Below are positions 2,051-53,421 of a DNA stretch of 64,000 bases, piece after piece (the stretch's first letter is position 1; the number at the start of each line of letters is the position of its first letter). The notes beneath the pieces were generated by a model that was not told where the DNA came from, did not search any database, and worked only from the letters and a program-made list of their open reading frames with translations. The DNA lies in contig CAKVNM010000001.1 in the NCBI GenBank assembly GCA_934777505.1, positions 28,977 through 92,976 on the forward strand. Direction: 5' to 3'. This DNA is from an uncultured Clostridia bacterium (GTDB lineage Bacteria > Bacillota > Clostridia > Christensenellales > UBA1242). The position numbers and the translations under genes were made by a program.

Positions 2051-3514
2051 ATGACACTAAGAGAACAATTATATAAAAATTATGGTGCGTACAGTAAGAA
2101 GTATTTTGAAATTTTAAGCAAGATGAGTGAAAAAGATAATTTTACTTTGAGTGAAATTGCTAAGGAAACAAACTATGCTTTTAAAATGATAACCGAACTT
2201 GTAAACTTTTTCTCAAATGATATTCAAGCGAGTAATCAAGGCTTATACAATGTTAAAAGTGAATTAAAGCAAGAAATTGATTTTTTGAAAAACTATTTTG
2301 CAGGTTTAGAAAATATTGACCGTGAACAAGCAAAAGCAAAGTATTTGCAATATGCATCAAAATTTACGAGCGACAAAAAAGATTTGGACCATATTTCTGC
2401 AACAGCCGAAACAGCAATAAACAGAGCAATGTATTTGATTGAAAACTATGATGTGGAAAAATTAAATATTGCTTTTTTAGGCGACCATGATTTTACAAGT
2501 ATTGCATTAAATATTTTGATTGATTTTAAAACGACTGTTTTTGATATCGACAATGATATTTTAAATCACATATCAAACTTTAATGAGAATATCATGACTT
2601 TTTATGCTGATTTTAGATTCGGGATCAACAAGATTTTTAATGACAAATTTGACCTTGTTTTTACAGACCCACCATACACAACAAATGGAATGGATTGCTT
2701 TTTGACAAATGCTAAAATTTTGTGTAAAAAAAGCCTTTATTCTGTTATTTTATGTTCATATTATTGTGGCGATTTGTCTATAAAAAACGGTCTAAATGTT
2801 CAACGAATGATACTTGATAGTGGACTTTATATTGAGGAGATTTTGCATAAATTTAATAAGTATAATTTTGCTGAATCGCTAGGTTACACTGCCGATTTAT
2901 ATGTGCTAAGATTAACAAATTTTGCCTACACTAAAAATAGTTTAAAACTTAACAACGAAATAAATATTTATACTCATGGCTTTATGTCTAACGAAAGTAT
3001 GTATCAAATGGAACAATATGCCAATATGCCTATGATAGTAAGGGTTGATGACGGCAAGAGTTTTAATATTTTTACTCTAATAAAGTCATCATTGAATGGC
3101 GATAACTTTGCACTTCCAAAAGAATGTTATTTACAAAATTTTGCAGATTATAAAATCAACTTTGTGCAATTTTTGTTTAATATGAATTTTAAAACTTTGT
3201 ATTTTAAAAGCAAGGAACAATTAAATGAAATTGTTGCCTACGCAAGTCTAACAAAGATTGTAAATGTTGAACAAAACGAAAATATTTATAAAATAAGTTT
3301 GCTAAATAATTTGTATGCAGAACTTATCAAAAGACATAATCTCATGCTCAACAAATTCATTAATTTTGTGCAAAACAAACTGGAAATAACAGATATTCCT
3401 TTTGATGATTATTGCAAAAACATTTTCTACAAATACAAGAATTATCCACTTTCTGTTATTCCATATAAATTTTTATTTAAAATACTAGATTGTTTGACAA
3501 AGAATGAAAAGTAG
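2051..3514 (+). CDS. BpsA/DUF43-like aminopropyl- or methyltransferase-fold protein with about 190-aa C-terminal extension
   Basis: LGDHDFTSIAL and FTDPPYT motifs with spacing resembling the DUF43/branched-polyamine synthase fold (GDDDLTS ... TDPPYT); residues about 300-487 match nothing I recognise. Confidence 0.6.
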   Translation: MTLREQLYKNYGAYSKKYFEILSKMSEKDNFTLSEIAKETNYAFKMITELVNFFSNDIQASNQGLYNVKSELKQEIDFLKNYFAGLENIDREQAKAKYLQYASKFTSDKKDLDHISATAETAINRAMYLIENYDVEKLNIAFLGDHDFTSIALNILIDFKTTVFDIDNDILNHISNFNENIMTFYADFRFGINKIFNDKFDLVFTDPPYTTNGMDCFLTNAKILCKKSLYSVILCSYYCGDLSIKNGLNVQRMILDSGLYIEEILHKFNKYNFAESLGYTADLYVLRLTNFAYTKNSLKLNNEINIYTHGFMSNESMYQMEQYANMPMIVRVDDGKSFNIFTLIKSSLNGDNFALPKECYLQNFADYKINFVQFLFNMNFKTLYFKSKEQLNEIVAYASLTKIVNVEQNENIYKISLLNNLYAELIKRHNLMLNKFINFVQNKLEITDIPFDDYCKNIFYKYKNYPLSVIPYKFLFKILDCLTKNEK

Positions 3515-47409: not shown

Positions 47410-48558
<1,149 letters not shown>

Positions 48559-48652
48559 TTTGTCGAAACTTTAACTTTATTTAAAACAAGCGGTTAAAAA
48601 TTGTTGCAAAAATATTCGCATTAATGATAAAATTAACCCAAGGAGAAAAATT

Positions 48653-49114
48653 ATGTCAATGTTATTAGAAAACACATCAAATCCAGGATTTTTTGAAAAA
48701 TATGGTTTGCTTATTATTTTAGTTGTTATGATTATCGCAATGTTTGTTTTCAACTTTTTGCGTCAAAAAAAATATCAACAACAAGAAGCAAAAATGCTTG
48801 AAGATATCAAAGTTGGAACAAAAGTTAAAACTTATGCAGGCGTTTATGGAACAATCGTTGGAATGTACGACTCAACAGACGGCAAAGTTGCTATTTTGTC
48901 ACTAGACGGCAAAGCAACTATGGAAGTTGATTTTAGGTCTATCTATGTTATCGACAACAAAACAGAAGTAACTGCTGAAAAGACAGAAGAAAACGCAGAA
49001 GAAGTCAAGGCAGAACCAGTTGCAGATGCAAACAAAGAACCTAAACAAGAAGACTCAAAACCAGCAGAAGAGCCAAAAGCAAAGAAAGCCAAAAAAGAAA
49101 AAAATCAAGATTAA
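48653..49114 (+). CDS. yajC: Preprotein translocase subunit YajC with a long charged C-terminal tail
   Basis: TM, then KKYQQQEAKMLEDIKVGTKVKTYAGVYGTIVG YajC core; about 50-aa K/E/A/P tail. Confidence 0.85.
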   Translation: MSMLLENTSNPGFFEKYGLLIILVVMIIAMFVFNFLRQKKYQQQEAKMLEDIKVGTKVKTYAGVYGTIVGMYDSTDGKVAILSLDGKATMEVDFRSIYVIDNKTEVTAEKTEENAEEVKAEPVADANKEPKQEDSKPAEEPKAKKAKKEKNQD

Positions 49115-49127
49115 TAAAAAAACACTA

Positions 49128-49164
49128 CCGTTAGTCAATACTAATTGAAACTAGCGGTTTTTTT
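49128..49164 (+). terminator. Rho-independent terminator after yajC
   Basis: ccgttagt (49128-49135) / actagcgg (49150-49157), one G-U pair, 14-nt loop, 7-T run. Confidence 0.7.
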
Positions 49165-49274
49165 AATAGCATATTTGAAAGTTACAGAGAGTATATTCTT
49201 GGATATGATTGTCTTTGTAAAAATGCTTTATTTAATTAAATGATTAGTTCGTTAAATTTTTATACTAAAATTTA

Positions 49275-49303
49275 TTGACAATCAGTCAAAATTATATTAT
49301 ATT
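49275..49303 (+). promoter_or_regulatory. Sigma-A type promoter of the islet
   Basis: TTGACA (49275-49280), 17-nt spacer, TATATT (49298-49303). Confidence 0.6.
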
Positions 49304-49332
49304 ACTCTTGTAGTAAATTGGAGAGAAAGCTT

Positions 49333-49596
49333 TTGAATTATCTTGTTAACAATGAATTCTATTTTGAAGTATTTGATGATGGAGATGTGATGGCATGTGG
49401 TAAGGCTATCCCAAGGAGTTTCATACTAAATAAAACGACTTGGTATGTTATCCAATTATTTAATTGCATTACTTCATATGGAAATGCAAAGGAAAAATTT
49501 ATTAACCATTATAATAGAGATAAAATATTCCTTTCGGACGAATTTGAAAAGATTTTTAAGAATTTACTAAAAAATGAAATTATAATAGGAGTTTAA
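49333..49596 (+). CDS. PqqD-like RiPP recognition element (RRE) protein, stand-alone
   Basis: About 87 aa; SFILNKTTWYVIQLFNCITSYGNAKEKFINHY...LSDEFEKIFKNLLKNEII fits the PqqD pattern (LNetaa.i..l.dG..t..e....l...y....l..d...fl..L...g.i). The track start 49318 (TTG-GAG) lies in the SD GGAGAG; TTG 49333 has 7-nt spacing. Confidence 0.55.
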   Translation: MNYLVNNEFYFEVFDDGDVMACGKAIPRSFILNKTTWYVIQLFNCITSYGNAKEKFINHYNRDKIFLSDEFEKIFKNLLKNEIIIGV

Positions 49597-49597
49597 T

Positions 49598-49789
49598 ATG
49601 GAAAATTATGAAGAAGCTTTGCTTGAAGAAATGTCATTAGAAGAATGTAATTATTCCAATGAATGTACAGTTGTTTGTACTTATATGTATGGTTATTGTG
49701 GTGAAGCTGAAGGTTGGGGTACAATTTACTGCCCAGAATGGGGGTCACCTTCAACTAATGATTCAGATGATGACGATTCGGATGATTAG
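49598..49789 (+). CDS. Putative RiPP precursor peptide (63 aa, 5 Cys, 8 aromatic, 18 acidic, 0 basic residues)
   Basis: MENYEEALLEEMSLEECNYSNECTVVCTYMYGYCGEAEGWGTIYCPEWGSPSTNDSDDDDSDD; ideal SD AGGAG 6 nt upstream inside the end of the RRE gene; 1 nt after the RRE stop; directly upstream of the rSAM gene. Confidence 0.65.
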   Translation: MENYEEALLEEMSLEECNYSNECTVVCTYMYGYCGEAEGWGTIYCPEWGSPSTNDSDDDDSDD

Positions 49790-49816
49790 AAGTTGTTTAT
49801 ATATGGAATGTAAGAT

Positions 49817-50875
49817 ATGAATAAATTAAAAAGTATGTATATTGAAGTGACATCAGTGTGCAACATGAACTGCCCTTATTGCTATAATAATTCAGGCTGT
49901 AAAGGTACTTATTTAGATAAGAAATATGTTTTTGATTTAATTGATCAATGTTATAAAAATAAAATTTCTGAAATAACTATTTCTGGTGGAGAACCGTTTT
50001 TACATCCTAATATAATGGATTTTATTAAATACGCAAATAATAAACAAATACATGTTAGGATTATTTCGAATTTATCAACCATTAAAACAGATACTGCTAT
50101 TGAGATATTAAAACATGGTAATTATTTTCAGTTAACATTAGACTCTACAGATGAAAAAGAAAATGATTCTATTCGAGGAAAAGGATGTTACAAAAAAATT
50201 ATTGAGTTATTAGAAAAAGCAAAAAAAGTTAATTTATCTAAAAGAATAGTTCTGAGAATGAATTTAAGTAAAAAAAATGTTAACAAAATTGACTCTTTTA
50301 TTAATTTGTCGATATTTTATGGAGTCAAACATGTTTCTATCGCATTTATTGCGAATTGTGGAAGAGGACAAGAGTATGAATATGCGTTTAGTTATCAACA
50401 TACATTATCTGAAATGATAGGCATAATGGAAAAACTTAAAGTGTTATCCATTAAATTAAAAGAAACTATAGATATATCGTATAATAATTTAGAAGAACAA
50501 AGAAGTTGTCCGCTTTTTAATTTAGGTGACATAGAAATTAATCCAAGAATTGACCCTAATGGCAATGTTTTCTTTTGTGGTTATTTTTTTGGTGAAGAGA
50601 ATTCTCTTGGTAATATCTCAAATAATAGTGTTGATGAAATTATTAATTCTAAAGATTTTCATTGTTTTAAGGAAAAAGTTCAGAAAAGAAAACAAAATAA
50701 TAAGTGTGAGGTTTGTCTTTTTAATAAAATATGTTCGTGTGGTTGCCCTGCAATATCTTTCATGAATACGAATAATATTTTTAATATTGATAATCAATGC
50801 AAAATGATTAAATATTTTATTAAAAATAATTTTAGAAAAAAAAGAGGATTGCTTAATAATAAAAATGAAAGATAA
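49817..50875 (+). CDS. Radical SAM enzyme with C-terminal SPASM domain (peptide-modifying maturase type)
   Basis: CNMNCPYC (Cx3Cx2C) at residues 15-22; GGEP SAM-binding motif; SPASM-like Cx17Gx4C ... CEVCLFNKICSCGC (Cx2Cx5Cx3C) ... C. Confidence 0.85.
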   Translation: MNKLKSMYIEVTSVCNMNCPYCYNNSGCKGTYLDKKYVFDLIDQCYKNKISEITISGGEPFLHPNIMDFIKYANNKQIHVRIISNLSTIKTDTAIEILKHGNYFQLTLDSTDEKENDSIRGKGCYKKIIELLEKAKKVNLSKRIVLRMNLSKKNVNKIDSFINLSIFYGVKHVSIAFIANCGRGQEYEYAFSYQHTLSEMIGIMEKLKVLSIKLKETIDISYNNLEEQRSCPLFNLGDIEINPRIDPNGNVFFCGYFFGEENSLGNISNNSVDEIINSKDFHCFKEKVQKRKQNNKCEVCLFNKICSCGCPAISFMNTNNIFNIDNQCKMIKYFIKNNFRKKRGLLNNKNER

Positions 50876-51452
50876 ATGGTTGATAGTTGGACTTGGGAAT
50901 CCTGGTAGAGAATATATCTCAACTAGGCACAATGCCGGATTTATAGTTGTTGATGAAATACTGAAAGACTTAAAATATAGTCATGAAATCAAGAAATTTG
51001 ATGGATTAATTTATAAAACAATAATTAATAATACGATATGTTTTTTTTTAAAACCTCAAACTTATATGAATAATAGTGGGACATGTGTTTACAATGTTGC
51101 ACATTATTATAAGATTCCTTTGGATAAAATTATTATATTGACCGATGATATAAATTTTAAAGTTGGTAAAATAAAAATAAAACAGAATGGATCAGCTGGT
51201 GGACATAAAGGAATAAATAGTATTATCGAAACATTTAAAACTAATAAGTTTACTAGAATTAAAATAGGTGTTAATGATAAACCGAGTAAATTTATTGATC
51301 TGAAAGATTGGGTTGTTAGTAACTTTTCTATGGATGAAATAAAAGATATTAAACATTGTTCTGAAGCAATTATTGATATAATACAATTAGCACTTGAAAA
51401 TAATATACAAATGGCAATGAATAAATATAATGGGACAAATGTTGTTTTGTGA
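50865..51452 (+). CDS. pth: Peptidyl-tRNA hydrolase
   Basis: LIVGLGNPGREYISTRHNAGF, YMNNSG, TDDINF, GGHKGINS; 11-nt overlap with the rSAM gene; composition matches the islet. Confidence 0.88.
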   Translation: MKDKWLIVGLGNPGREYISTRHNAGFIVVDEILKDLKYSHEIKKFDGLIYKTIINNTICFFLKPQTYMNNSGTCVYNVAHYYKIPLDKIIILTDDINFKVGKIKIKQNGSAGGHKGINSIIETFKTNKFTRIKIGVNDKPSKFIDLKDWVVSNFSMDEIKDIKHCSEAIIDIIQLALENNIQMAMNKYNGTNVVL

Positions 51453-51495
51453 ATTATAAGTGCCTTTGTCCCTGTTTTTTTATTTCGCAAATTTC

Positions 51496-51525
51496 AAAAA
51501 CACTATCAAAACGATAGTGTTTTTT
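51496..51525. terminator. Bidirectional terminator (pth / convergent membrane gene)
   Basis: Perfect 12-bp stem aaaaacactatc (51496-51507) / gatagtgttttt (51513-51524), 5-nt loop. Confidence 0.85.
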
Positions 51526-51532
51526 GTTGCTT

Positions 51533-51925
51533 TTATTTTTTAACATTCACTCCAATCACTCCGCAAATTGCACCAGTTAGTAATCCAAACACAAGGTCAA
51601 TCAAAATTGTAACATCAAACTTGAATTGTCCGTTTAAAATAGAGAACACAACAAATGCTAAAATGGTGTAGAGAAAGCCAATAACAAGACCTTTAACCAA
51701 TCCTTTTTGCTTGTCTTTTTTGGTTACAAAAAGCACTCCAATCAAAATACTAAGCACTTTTATAACTTGATTTATGGGTTTGATTAGTGTTTCGCTCATG
51801 TTTGTTAGTTTAATAAAAAAAGCAAACACAAGTATGCAAATCAAACTAACGCAAACGCTGATTAATGCCCCTTTTAAACAACTCAAAACGATATTTTTAT
51901 TCTCATTTTTTTTAACTTGTTCCAT
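51533..51925 (-). CDS. Small four-TM membrane protein (TIGR04086/YrzE-like)
   Basis: Start moved to ATG 51925 (SD AAGGAG); 130 aa; Gly-rich TM helices (GLVIGFLY, GLLTGAICGVIG). Confidence 0.6.
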   Translation of the reverse strand: MEQVKKNENKNIVLSCLKGALISVCVSLICILVFAFFIKLTNMSETLIKPINQVIKVLSILIGVLFVTKKDKQKGLVKGLVIGFLYTILAFVVFSILNGQFKFDVTILIDLVFGLLTGAICGVIGVNVKK

Positions 51926-52089
51926 TTTTTGCTCCTTATACTTTAATCTATGAACAAAAATAGCCAATTATGACTTATAAAAAATGCCAAAAATGTTAAG
52001 TATTTATTAATACTTGCTTAAAAAATTTGACTATAAAGCCTAATTAATATATACTTAATTAGAAATTTTGTTTATTAGGAGAACTAATC

Positions 52090-53421
52090 GTGAAAAAGAA
52101 AAGAGCAATACTAAATTTTGCTGGAATTATCTTTGTTTGCTTGTTGCTAGCGGTGTTATCGGTTGTTAGATTTACAATCCCTGGCACATACTACAAAGAA
52201 TATGTTGGATTTTTGAACGCTATCGAACTTGGAATTGATTACAAGGGTGGTACAACATTAGTCATCGAAGCAAAAAACAACTCAGCAGACTACACAAACT
52301 TTGCCAAGGGCGTTGAAGCACACGCACTTAGAATAAAAGGTATTTTGGCTGACAACAATTACAATAGCAATGTTTACACAACGCTAGGAACAAGTTTGGT
52401 TATGGAAATCTTTGACGAATACGACACAGATGCAATCAGTGATTTAATCAGTGCGACAAACAACAAACTTGCAATTAGAACTGAAAACAGCACAACTGGC
52501 GAAGTTTACTTGACTCAGGACGATATCGAAGACGCTTATGCAATGGAAAACGGCTATTATGGCTACACAAACACTTCAAGATATGGTGTTTATGTAAAGT
52601 TTACACAGCATGGCAAAGAACAAATCAAAACTATCACTTCGGGTGCTTCTTCAAACAGTAAAAAAACACTTTACTTCTTTATTGGAGATTCGCTATTTCA
52701 ACAACTTCCTGTAAGTGAAGAAGTCGACCAAGATTATATCTTTATTTCTGGCGGAAGCACTCTTAACACAAAAGACGGAGCAGACCAATACGCTGGAAAA
52801 CTTCTTTCAACAAAATATGACTACACTTTTGAGCAAAAATCAAAAACAGTCATTCAAGCAGATGTTGCACAAAGAAATTTGATTTTGTCACTTGTTATCA
52901 CAGCAGTTATCATTGTTGCTAGCATGATTATGCTAATCGTTAGATTTAAAAAACTTGGACTTGTAAACTGCCTAGCACTTATTGTTGGAGTACTACTTCA
53001 AATCATTATGCTTCAAGCAGTTCCAGGAATTGTTATCACAGCGCAAGCATTTATGGGTTCTGTACTCACTTATGTTCTTGGCTTTGGCATGATTTACTAT
53101 ATGCTCAGCAAAATGGCTGGCGAGTACGCACAAGGGAAGAAGGCACATTCAAGTTTCAAATTTGGTTTCTTAAAAAACTATATGCCACTTGTTGAACTTT
53201 CTGTAAGTTATCTTGTAGCAAATATTATTTTCTACATCTTTGGCTCAACCGCAGTTAAGTACTTTGCTTTTGCTTCCATTATTGGAATAGTTATTTATGG
53301 ACTATGTGCAATCTTGGTTTCAAAATTGTTTAACAAACTTTGCTTGAATATCTATCAAGAAAAAGTTAAGAATTATGGATTTACAAGGGAGGCAAATGTT
53401 CATGAACTCGAAGAAATTTAA
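52090..53421 (+). CDS. secD: Protein translocase subunit SecD
   Basis: GTG start after SD AGGAGA; N-terminal TM, periplasmic-type domain (GIDYKGGTTLVIEA), C-terminal 5-TM bundle. Confidence 0.88.
   Translation: MKKKRAILNFAGIIFVCLLLAVLSVVRFTIPGTYYKEYVGFLNAIELGIDYKGGTTLVIEAKNNSADYTNFAKGVEAHALRIKGILADNNYNSNVYTTLGTSLVMEIFDEYDTDAISDLISATNNKLAIRTENSTTGEVYLTQDDIEDAYAMENGYYGYTNTSRYGVYVKFTQHGKEQIKTITSGASSNSKKTLYFFIGDSLFQQLPVSEEVDQDYIFISGGSTLNTKDGADQYAGKLLSTKYDYTFEQKSKTVIQADVAQRNLILSLVITAVIIVASMIMLIVRFKKLGLVNCLALIVGVLLQIIMLQAVPGIVITAQAFMGSVLTYVLGFGMIYYMLSKMAGEYAQGKKAHSSFKFGFLKNYMPLVELSVSYLVANIIFYIFGSTAVKYFAFASIIGIVIYGLCAILVSKLFNKLCLNIYQEKVKNYGFTREANVHELEEI

Follow-up and report, generated by a model that had tools for sequence, protein, structure and literature searches.

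The 64,000-nucleotide stretch of clostridial DNA analysed here (the window) contains a 63-codon open reading frame (ORF) at 49598-49789 on the forward strand, next to a gene for a radical S-adenosylmethionine (radical-SAM) enzyme. An earlier note had proposed that this ORF encodes a precursor peptide, and the question is whether it does and to what kind of system the two genes belong. Our analysis suggests, with a probability of about 0.75, that the product of the ORF is the precursor of a radical-SAM-modified ribosomally synthesized and post-translationally modified peptide (RiPP) not described before, and that the ORF is part of a four-gene unit with a peptidyl-tRNA hydrolase (Pth) as functional partner. 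The ORF and its parts are listed below.

49598-49789, forward strand: precursor peptide ORF, 63 aa, from translation
49598-49663, forward strand: leader, residues 1-22, MENYEEALLEEMSLEECNYSNE, variable in sequence and charge among 14 homologues
49664-49741, forward strand: core, residues 23-48, CTVVCTYMYGYCGEAEGWGTIYCPEW, near-invariant among 14 homologues, with four conserved Cys
49742-49789, forward strand: follower, residues 49-63, consisting of a GSPSTN linker, DSDDDDSDD and the stop codon

The 63-residue sequence quoted in the earlier note was the exact translation of the ORF, and its composition was recovered as described: 18 acidic residues (11 Glu and 7 Asp) without any Lys, Arg or His, five Cys (positions 17, 23, 27, 34 and 45), eight aromatic residues (Tyr 4, 19, 29, 31, 33 and 44; Trp 40 and 48) and a C-terminal DSDDDDSDD tail. 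The net charge of the peptide is -18.

Homologues were collected by word-indexed searches, using the single peptide as query and then an eight-member alignment. The peptide was found identical on three public contigs, and 14 full-length homologues and two fragments were detected. They have in common a 26-residue core, C-[TED]-V-[VEK]-C-T-Y-M-[YF]-[GA]-Y-C-x3-[DE]-G-W-G-T-T-[YH]-C-P-x-W. In pairwise comparisons across eight genes, the proportion of synonymous differences in the core codons (pS) was 0.26-0.95 versus 0.02-0.20 for nonsynonymous differences (pN); synonymous sites were near saturation while replacement sites were hardly altered. Since pN was far below pS, the core is selected as protein in the frame of the ORF, and these comparisons mark the 63-codon ORF as a genuine gene on which purifying selection is strong.

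When 1.84 billion representative proteins were searched exhaustively with a profile, only two true clusters emerged, and the peptide family is compact and rare. A metagenome scan with the peptide profile added one extra copy of a known cassette (L097); two other matches were rejected as false positives located inside a long eukaryote-like ORF. The viral contigs scanned for the cassette gave no match, so there is no evidence for a phage-borne cassette. The Rfam scan of the entire window was also without a match, and thus no known RNA element accounts for the region. The peptide matched no family among the NCBIfam and Pfam models at E values up to 1, and in the literature searched neither a description of the family nor the core motif was found. 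Pth-domain proteins adjoining MNIO enzymes were noted in one paper, which concerns a different system. The host organisms are uncultured low-GC bacteria, and some of the contigs are of gut origin.

The alignment bore out the division into leader, core and tail: the leader was variable, the core near-invariant and the tail variable or absent. The conserved Cys are C23, C27, C34 and C45, whereas Cys17, which the earlier note had counted with the core, is outside the conserved pattern. M1 and Y4 were the sole conserved leader positions among the first eight members aligned. The leader of the window peptide aligned with the 'M-x-Y-x-K-P-x-I' leaders of tail-less relatives, and approximately half of the family leaders were neutral or basic and followed the pattern 'M-x-Y-I-K-P-x-I...', in which they resemble the leaders of the sister clade described below. 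A poly-Asp/Glu tail was present in 7 of the 14 peptides, with differences in length and in D/E/S/N content; the seven tail-less peptides ended at most 8 residues past the core. The net charge ranged from -8 to -30 in tailed members and from -4 to +6 in tail-less ones. The acidic leader and poly-Asp tail described earlier are therefore present in the window peptide but confined to one subclade and not a family trait; strong acidity is a derived character of that subclade and does not define the precursor. Position 38 (C34+4) was Asp or Glu in all 14 members, while its neighbours varied. As regards motifs, which are not in themselves cross-links, C34-x3-[D/E]38 was one invariant candidate Cys-x3-Asp/Glu acceptor site, Thr 28, 42 and 43 were conserved, and the window peptide has the aromatic-x-x motifs Y29-M-Y, Y31-G-Y, W40-G-T and W48-G-S.

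For the genomic context, the contigs of nine enzyme/peptide homologues were used together with 80 more distantly related radical-SAM/SPASM loci taken from reference genomes. All fetched homologues of the neighbouring enzyme (the maturase) with at least 45% identity had a homologous peptide encoded directly upstream, with a near-invariant Cys/Tyr/Trp pattern, which agrees with the expectation of the earlier note that the pattern would be conserved next to homologous enzymes. The order of a PqqD-family RiPP recognition element (RRE) gene, the peptide gene and the maturase gene was kept in all 11 distinct cassettes encoding a YMYGYC...GWGTTYC core, although the RRE gene was disrupted in one of them (L094), and likewise in every fetched locus whose sequence was complete in this part. 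Because the ORF sits between a PqqD-family protein and a radical-SAM/SPASM enzyme, its reading as a RiPP precursor is supported, and this context and the conserved core both argue for the adjacent enzyme as its maturase. The gene islet as first read was too small: it has four genes, and the earlier note had missed the PqqD-family protein and left pth unconnected. The other features of the unit are as follows.

49127-49158, forward strand: terminator-like hairpin with a U7 run, free energy (dG) -12.5 kcal/mol, z -4.2, equalled in stability by none of 200 shuffled sequences
49275-49303, forward strand: promoter-like site TTGACA-17 nt-TATATT, 11/12 match to a sigma-70-type consensus
49333-49596, forward strand: PqqD-family RRE gene, 87 aa, TTG start with a GGAGAG Shine-Dalgarno (SD) sequence; mechanical alternative start at 49318
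49817-50875, forward strand: radical-SAM/SPASM maturase gene, 352 aa, no fused leader-binding domain
50865-51452, forward strand: pth, 195 aa, last gene of the operon, overlapping the maturase end by 11 nt
51496-51524, forward strand: terminator-like hairpin with a T-run, dG -12.9 kcal/mol, z -4.2

The 87-residue protein of the window had no direct Pfam or NCBIfam match. PF05402 (PqqD) was matched by 13 of 19 members of its RRE family (best E value 1.2e-9), and a profile built from more distant members only matched the window protein with 37.7 bits (E value 9e-14). These matches indicate that it is a discrete PqqD-family leader-recognition protein. Its single-sequence AlphaFold2 (AF2) model was too poor (mean predicted local distance difference test, pLDDT, 51) and was set aside. 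The RRE gene occupied the same position in all complete cassettes but one, that of L094, where a stop codon interrupts it at approximately 390-650 (MKYILSNNVSVARFDDNEALIIFKD followed by the stop); the RRE of the sister locus L100 was intact and 97 aa long. The broken gene represents either a decaying cassette or an assembly error.

The maturase matched the Pfam models Radical_SAM (1.9e-24) and SPASM (4.2e-10). It contains the cluster motif CX3CX2C (C15/C19/C22) and the SAM-binding motif S56-G-G-E-P60, and C19, C22 and the GGEP motif were invariant among 18 maturase homologues. Seven SPASM Cys were conserved in the same 18 sequences (C231, C254, C297-x2-C300-x5-C306-x3-C310 and C328), so that the motifs for all three Fe-S clusters are present. 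In the AF2 model (pLDDT 87.7), the best fold matches were SuiB (top), SkfB, CteB, anSME and PqqE, which superposed about equally well. The best sequence matches among solved structures were CteB (1.2e-20, the match beginning at CteB residue 96) and SkfB (5.3e-19). By sequence as well as by fold, the nearest solved enzymes are SPASM enzymes that modify peptides. For every NCBIfam maturase model the score of the enzyme fell short of the curated cutoff, the best being MftC with 104.8 versus 265. It belongs to the radical-SAM/SPASM class but is outside every described family.

The hairpin at 49127-49158 is predicted to end the yajC transcript and to insulate the cassette. The promoter-like site was the best sigma-70-type match in 48500-52200 and lies 30 nt upstream of the first cassette gene; the hairpin at 51496-51524 was the only terminator-like site from a pattern scan of the same interval. 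No RNA structure was found in the spacer between the peptide and maturase genes, and the reading frames overlap or abut. The RRE, peptide, maturase and pth genes are thus predicted to form one four-gene unit bracketed by terminator-like hairpins. The SD sequence of the peptide gene, AGGAG at 49587-49591, is located 6 nt 5' of the ATG as noted earlier and falls within the final codons of the RRE gene, which ends with a TAA at 49596. The maturase gene has only GGAA (49805-49808, 8 nt 5' of its ATG), and the claim of a stronger signal for the substrate than for the enzyme thus holds. However, the peptide gene does not have the uniquely best SD of the islet, since the GGAGAG of the upstream RRE gene (49320-49325, 7 nt before the TTG at 49333) is equally strong.

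The GC content at third codon positions (GC3) was 0.168 for the maturase gene and 0.164 for pth, compared with mostly 0.30-0.39 for the other genes of the window, where the mean gene GC was 0.36 (sd 0.034). In most loci checked, the GC3 of pth tracked that of the cassette and not that of the flanks, most clearly in L092/L097, L100, L090 and L085. The only other window gene with an overall GC in the cassette range was a 487-aa ORF at 2051-3514 on the forward strand (GC 0.272, GC3 0.255), which may be another foreign gene for this reason.

The product of the fourth gene matched the Pth model TIGR00447 with 180.7 bits (cutoff 100) and aligned end to end with solved Pth enzymes (closest 2.8e-37). 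The catalytic residues were in place, in TRHNAGF (His22) and LTDD (Asp95). From these alignments, the gene encodes a bona fide peptidyl-tRNA hydrolase. At residue 115 (window 51207-51209) it has GGHKG, compared with GGHNG in the solved enzymes; Lys for Asn was found in eight of 10 cassette-linked Pths, and Asn was kept in L092 and L103. This Asn lines the active site of the Escherichia coli enzyme. A 268-aa gene call for the same Pth in the Logan assembly (P0033, L001 7268-8074, corresponding to window 50865-51671) was rejected: its DNA is identical to that of the window, and the extra length comes from translation past the TGA stop. Gene calling with code 4 on DNA of low GC is the probable source of this artefact, since the long housekeeping ORFs of the window are intact under table 11.

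In each of the 11 distinct cassettes the maturase gene was followed by pth, in one case after an intervening gene, versus none of 82 other radical-SAM/SPASM loci, which include the sister clade. Pairwise identities of maturases and Pths were correlated (r = 0.91). In L093, pth is located inside a full cluster, between the genes for an HprK-like protein and a peptidase, and in the other cassettes it was kept even where protease, exporter and regulator genes had been lost. No second pth was found within the 64-kb window.

In a neighbour-joining tree of the maturases, the sequences associated with the peptide and pth formed a monophyletic clade (bootstrap 0.92) in which L093 branched first, and the acid-tailed group that includes the window maturase formed a clade with 100% support within it. 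The cluster in L093 (842-7038) encodes a helix-turn-helix (HTH) protein, a PF14907 nucleotidyltransferase, RRE, peptide, maturase, an HprK-related protein, Pth, an S24/S26-type peptidase, a glyoxalase-fold protein and an ABC transporter. The other 10 of the 11 cassettes had no protease, exporter or immunity gene. The flanks differed in almost every locus, with yajC, HTH with DUF6442, ABC-2, tyrS, spoIVB or rpsO upstream and DUF3792, ftsAZ, HTH, serS, pflA or spoIVB downstream; the window cassette (RRE, peptide and maturase genes) has only yajC, pth and DUF3792 as neighbours. Relative to rpsO, the block was located after spoIVB in L092 and before spoIVB in L103. Upstream of the cassette in L100 (67-4096) there are about a dozen small ORFs, two with HTH matches and one with a SecB-like match, most of them without a Pfam match. 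This run could be the remnant of a mobile element beside the cassette.

The sister clade (L002, L003, L005, L015, L096 and others) consists of uncharacterised clusters from gut Clostridia and Coprobacillus-like metagenome-assembled genomes. Points in common are maturases with 36-44% identity, homologous PqqD-like proteins, leaders of the same type and a shared G-T-T-[FY]-(T)-C-[GP] motif. However, genes for an HTH regulator, an S24/S26-type peptidase and ABC exporters, and in many cases for an HprK-like protein, are part of its clusters, its peptides end in '(P)DEII' and lack the YMYGYC/GWG core, and no pth was found within 4 kb. The peptides of the sister clade and of L007, L008 and L023 read 'MKYVSP.MQSFSKEEV...SATCQ..C..G..FTCG...(P)DEII' or contain repeated G-x-S-[FY]-T-C-G units, and all these clusters include the same types of regulator, peptidase and exporter. 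Four representative sister-clade peptides matched no NCBIfam or Pfam model. Other Cys-rich peptides were encoded in more distant loci: L013 (3483-5989) has two near-identical 'MKFEKPSMKTYSIAELMEKIEAGACSPVCSGGCFIR..' genes followed by two tandem radical-SAM genes, and in L010 (5064-5539) three different Cys-rich peptides follow the maturase, and then an S24/S26-like peptidase.

The ancestor of the family may have been an export-type cluster with a regulator, an HprK-like protein, an S24/S26-type peptidase and an ABC exporter, as still seen in L093. The sister clade and L093 would represent the ancestral state, and the lineage with the YMYGYC core would have gained a pth copy, once. Most descendants, including the window, would then have lost the regulator, HprK-like protein, peptidase and exporter and kept RRE, peptide, maturase and pth. 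We take Pth to be a functional partner of the peptide because it appears to have been recruited once and kept through this cluster reduction. That it is a dedicated component of the RiPP system, recruited once and retained through the gene losses, is proposed tentatively and is in itself rather unlikely. Such a role could take three forms. Possibly the mature peptide hits the ribosome or peptidyl-tRNA turnover and Pth provides self-protection of the producer. Alternatively, synthesis of the peptide may yield peptidyl-tRNA that needs clearance, and the acidic N-termini of the tailed subclade resemble sequences that trigger intrinsic ribosome destabilisation. Pth may also recognise or process the peptide itself, as a C-terminal polyanion on a modified peptide loosely mimics peptidyl-tRNA. 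Self-protection or peptidyl-tRNA clearance would be a plausible role, and most plausibly Pth would guard the translation machinery of the producer against the product or against biosynthetic by-products.

Nascent chains rich in Asp, Glu and Pro at the N-terminus destabilise ribosomes and yield Pth-sensitive peptidyl-tRNA (bioRxiv 10.1101/2021.02.02.429294). The window peptide has five such residues at positions 2-11 and one relative has seven. Ribosome destabilisation by the acidic leader was nevertheless rejected as the original cause of the pth linkage, because pth is present as well in the earliest-branching cluster and in tail-less members whose leaders are neutral or basic. It may still be relevant in the acidic subclade.

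As to the chemistry, the PqqD-like protein would bind the leader, in which Y4 and a hydrophobic pattern are the conserved features, and hand the core to the maturase. The maturase would abstract hydrogen atoms and form intramolecular cross-links involving the four invariant Cys. Thioethers are the most likely type, at somewhat less than even odds; they are the leading guess because of the four invariant Cys, the thioether synthases that are its nearest relatives by sequence and the invariant acidic residue at C34+4. C34-x3-[D/E]38 is a candidate for a freyrasin-type Cys-to-Asp/Glu link, and further candidate acceptors are the conserved Thr or Tyr beside C27 and C45. Modification probably does not require the poly-Asp tail and acidic leader, since half of the family lacks them.

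Several observations weigh against the reading of the locus as a modified-peptide operon with Pth as partner. Modification of the peptide is predicted, and the type of cross-link is not legible in the sequence. The scores of the maturase for the named families were all far below cutoff (StsB 102.4/625, PapB 74.7/340, AlbA 59.3/850, PqqE 72.7/381), and the fold search did not distinguish enzymes that form thioethers from those that form C-C bonds. Protease and exporter genes are missing from the window cassette, which leaves the maturation and destination of the product unaccounted for. The pth linkage might persist for no other reason than that pth depends on the cassette promoter. The cassette was more conserved than its flank between L094 and L100 and less conserved between L092 and L103; with these opposite outcomes, the rates argue neither for nor against horizontal transfer.

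The precursor could also be the same but the chemistry different, with the aromatic residues Y29, Y31, Y33, W40, Y44 and W48 cross-linked by C-C or C-O bonds of the kind found in streptide, darobactin/dynobactin or three-residue cyclophanes, and the Cys serving otherwise, in disulfides or metal binding. These six core aromatics were invariant or nearly so and the top structural match, SuiB, is a Lys-Trp cross-linking enzyme, both in favour of aromatic cross-links; the models WgkB (85.9 bits) and DynA (74.1 bits) scored in the same range as the thioether-enzyme models. The three-residue cyclophane enzyme family was not named among the best 25 of 76 NCBIfam matches, and aromatic-x-x motifs are present. 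However, the four Cys were as strictly conserved as the aromatics, the sister-clade peptides ('SATC...C...FTCG') keep the Cys pattern with few aromatics and no Trp, and the best sequence matches among solved structures were the thioether enzymes CteB and SkfB. We consider aromatic cross-linking unlikely. A cofactor-like or regulatory molecule acting within the cell, like pyrroloquinoline quinone (PQQ) or mycofactocin, would fit a core that is near-invariant down to 45% maturase identity, a degree of conservation met more often in cofactor precursors than in antimicrobial peptides. The absence of protease, exporter and immunity genes from 10 of the 11 cassettes and the highest NCBIfam score, for the mycofactocin maturase model, point in the same direction, and the highly charged leader and tail speak against passive export. 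The linked genes included no tailoring enzymes or client oxidoreductases, the model scores were far under the family cutoffs, and the cluster that branches first encodes a peptidase and an ABC exporter, as is typical where the product is secreted. Two representative clusters in the 1.84 billion proteins would also be unlike the distribution of a useful cofactor, and an intracellular product rather than a secreted bioactive peptide is quite improbable.

With regard to pth, its adjacency may be without functional meaning if a three-gene RiPP cassette once landed between an essential pth and its promoter and the genes are held together by the need to express pth. This agrees with the operon structure, in which pth directly adjoins or overlaps the maturase gene and lacks a convincing separate promoter, with a full-length, high-scoring Pth that has the catalytic His and Asp, and with the lack of a second pth in the window. 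Several results conflict with it: the outlier GC3 of pth is that of the cassette and not of the host in most loci checked, the gene is in the middle of the cluster in L093, and the block shifts its position relative to spoIVB between related genomes. Moreover, purifying selection still acts on peptide, RRE and maturase, and the cassette is therefore more than a promoter donor in decay. A neutral adjacency is a possible explanation, if one below even odds. It is very improbable that no modified peptide is involved and that the ORF encodes an unmodified small acidic Cys-rich metal-binding protein or is a chance ORF. Four Cys and many carboxylates could bind metal, but the strict co-occurrence with RRE and SPASM maturase in 11 cassettes and the purifying selection in the frame of the ORF argue otherwise, as does the absence of an Rfam match in the window. 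The reading as a RiPP precursor in a four-gene unit with Pth is thus preferred.

Compared with known systems, the locus resembles those of thermocellin (CteA/CteB), freyrasin (PapA/PapB) and the sporulation killing factor (SkfA/SkfB), in which a short Cys-rich precursor adjoins a radical-SAM/SPASM enzyme. Freyrasin has Cys-x3-Asp units, which the C-x3-[D/E] of the window family recalls. The locus differs from the ranthipeptide and sactipeptide systems in that the leader-binding domain is a separate protein and not fused, the Tyr/Trp-rich core bears no sequence relationship to theirs, protease and exporter are absent from the window, and pth is linked. The cutoffs of the known sactisynthase families (AlbA, StsB) and of the PapB family model were not reached by the maturase, and the precursor matched no ranthipeptide precursor model. 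With PqqA/D/E and MftA/B/C the locus shares a discrete PqqD-family protein, a radical-SAM/SPASM enzyme of approximately 350 aa and a short precursor with an invariant Tyr-containing core. However, pqqB/C/F and mftD/E/F are absent from the window locus and the equivalog cutoffs were not reached. To our knowledge, the PQQ and mycofactocin precursors do not have the four invariant Cys of the window core.

The earlier note had also suggested a QhpC-like subunit. QhpD is a radical-SAM/SPASM enzyme that forms Cys-to-Asp/Glu thioethers in QhpC, the small subunit of quinohemoprotein amine dehydrogenase, which contains Cys, Trp and acidic residues and stays cell-associated. In the window around the cassette and in the related loci no partner genes were found, that is, none for QhpD, QhpE, QhpG or a quinohemoprotein amine dehydrogenase subunit, and no QhpD-type model was among the best 25 of 76 NCBIfam matches. 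A QhpC-type subunit was rejected on the grounds that no dehydrogenase subunit, flavoprotein or subtilisin-like protease genes are nearby.

The enzymology of this locus is probably familiar, but the precursor, the stripped-down operon and the partnership with Pth are not. Radical-SAM-modified peptides have been a productive source of new chemistry and antibiotics, and the core of this family is a new, unusually rigid Cys/Tyr/Trp pattern. A cluster reduced to four genes without protease or exporter, in which the core is still strongly selected, is unlike routine genome-mining hits, and so is the invariable coupling to Pth. A new family of radical-SAM-modified RiPPs alone would be routine; the invariant link to a translation-rescue enzyme is surprising. 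We know of no other case of Pth as a partner of radical-SAM-modified peptides, and of no report connecting the biosynthesis of peptide natural products with translation quality control. A functional coupling would tie the two together and give a testable lead to the target of the product. If Pth does serve self-protection, a resistance gene would flag a new class of translation-targeting peptides. Given the gut origin of some of the contigs, the product could be relevant to the ecology of the gut.

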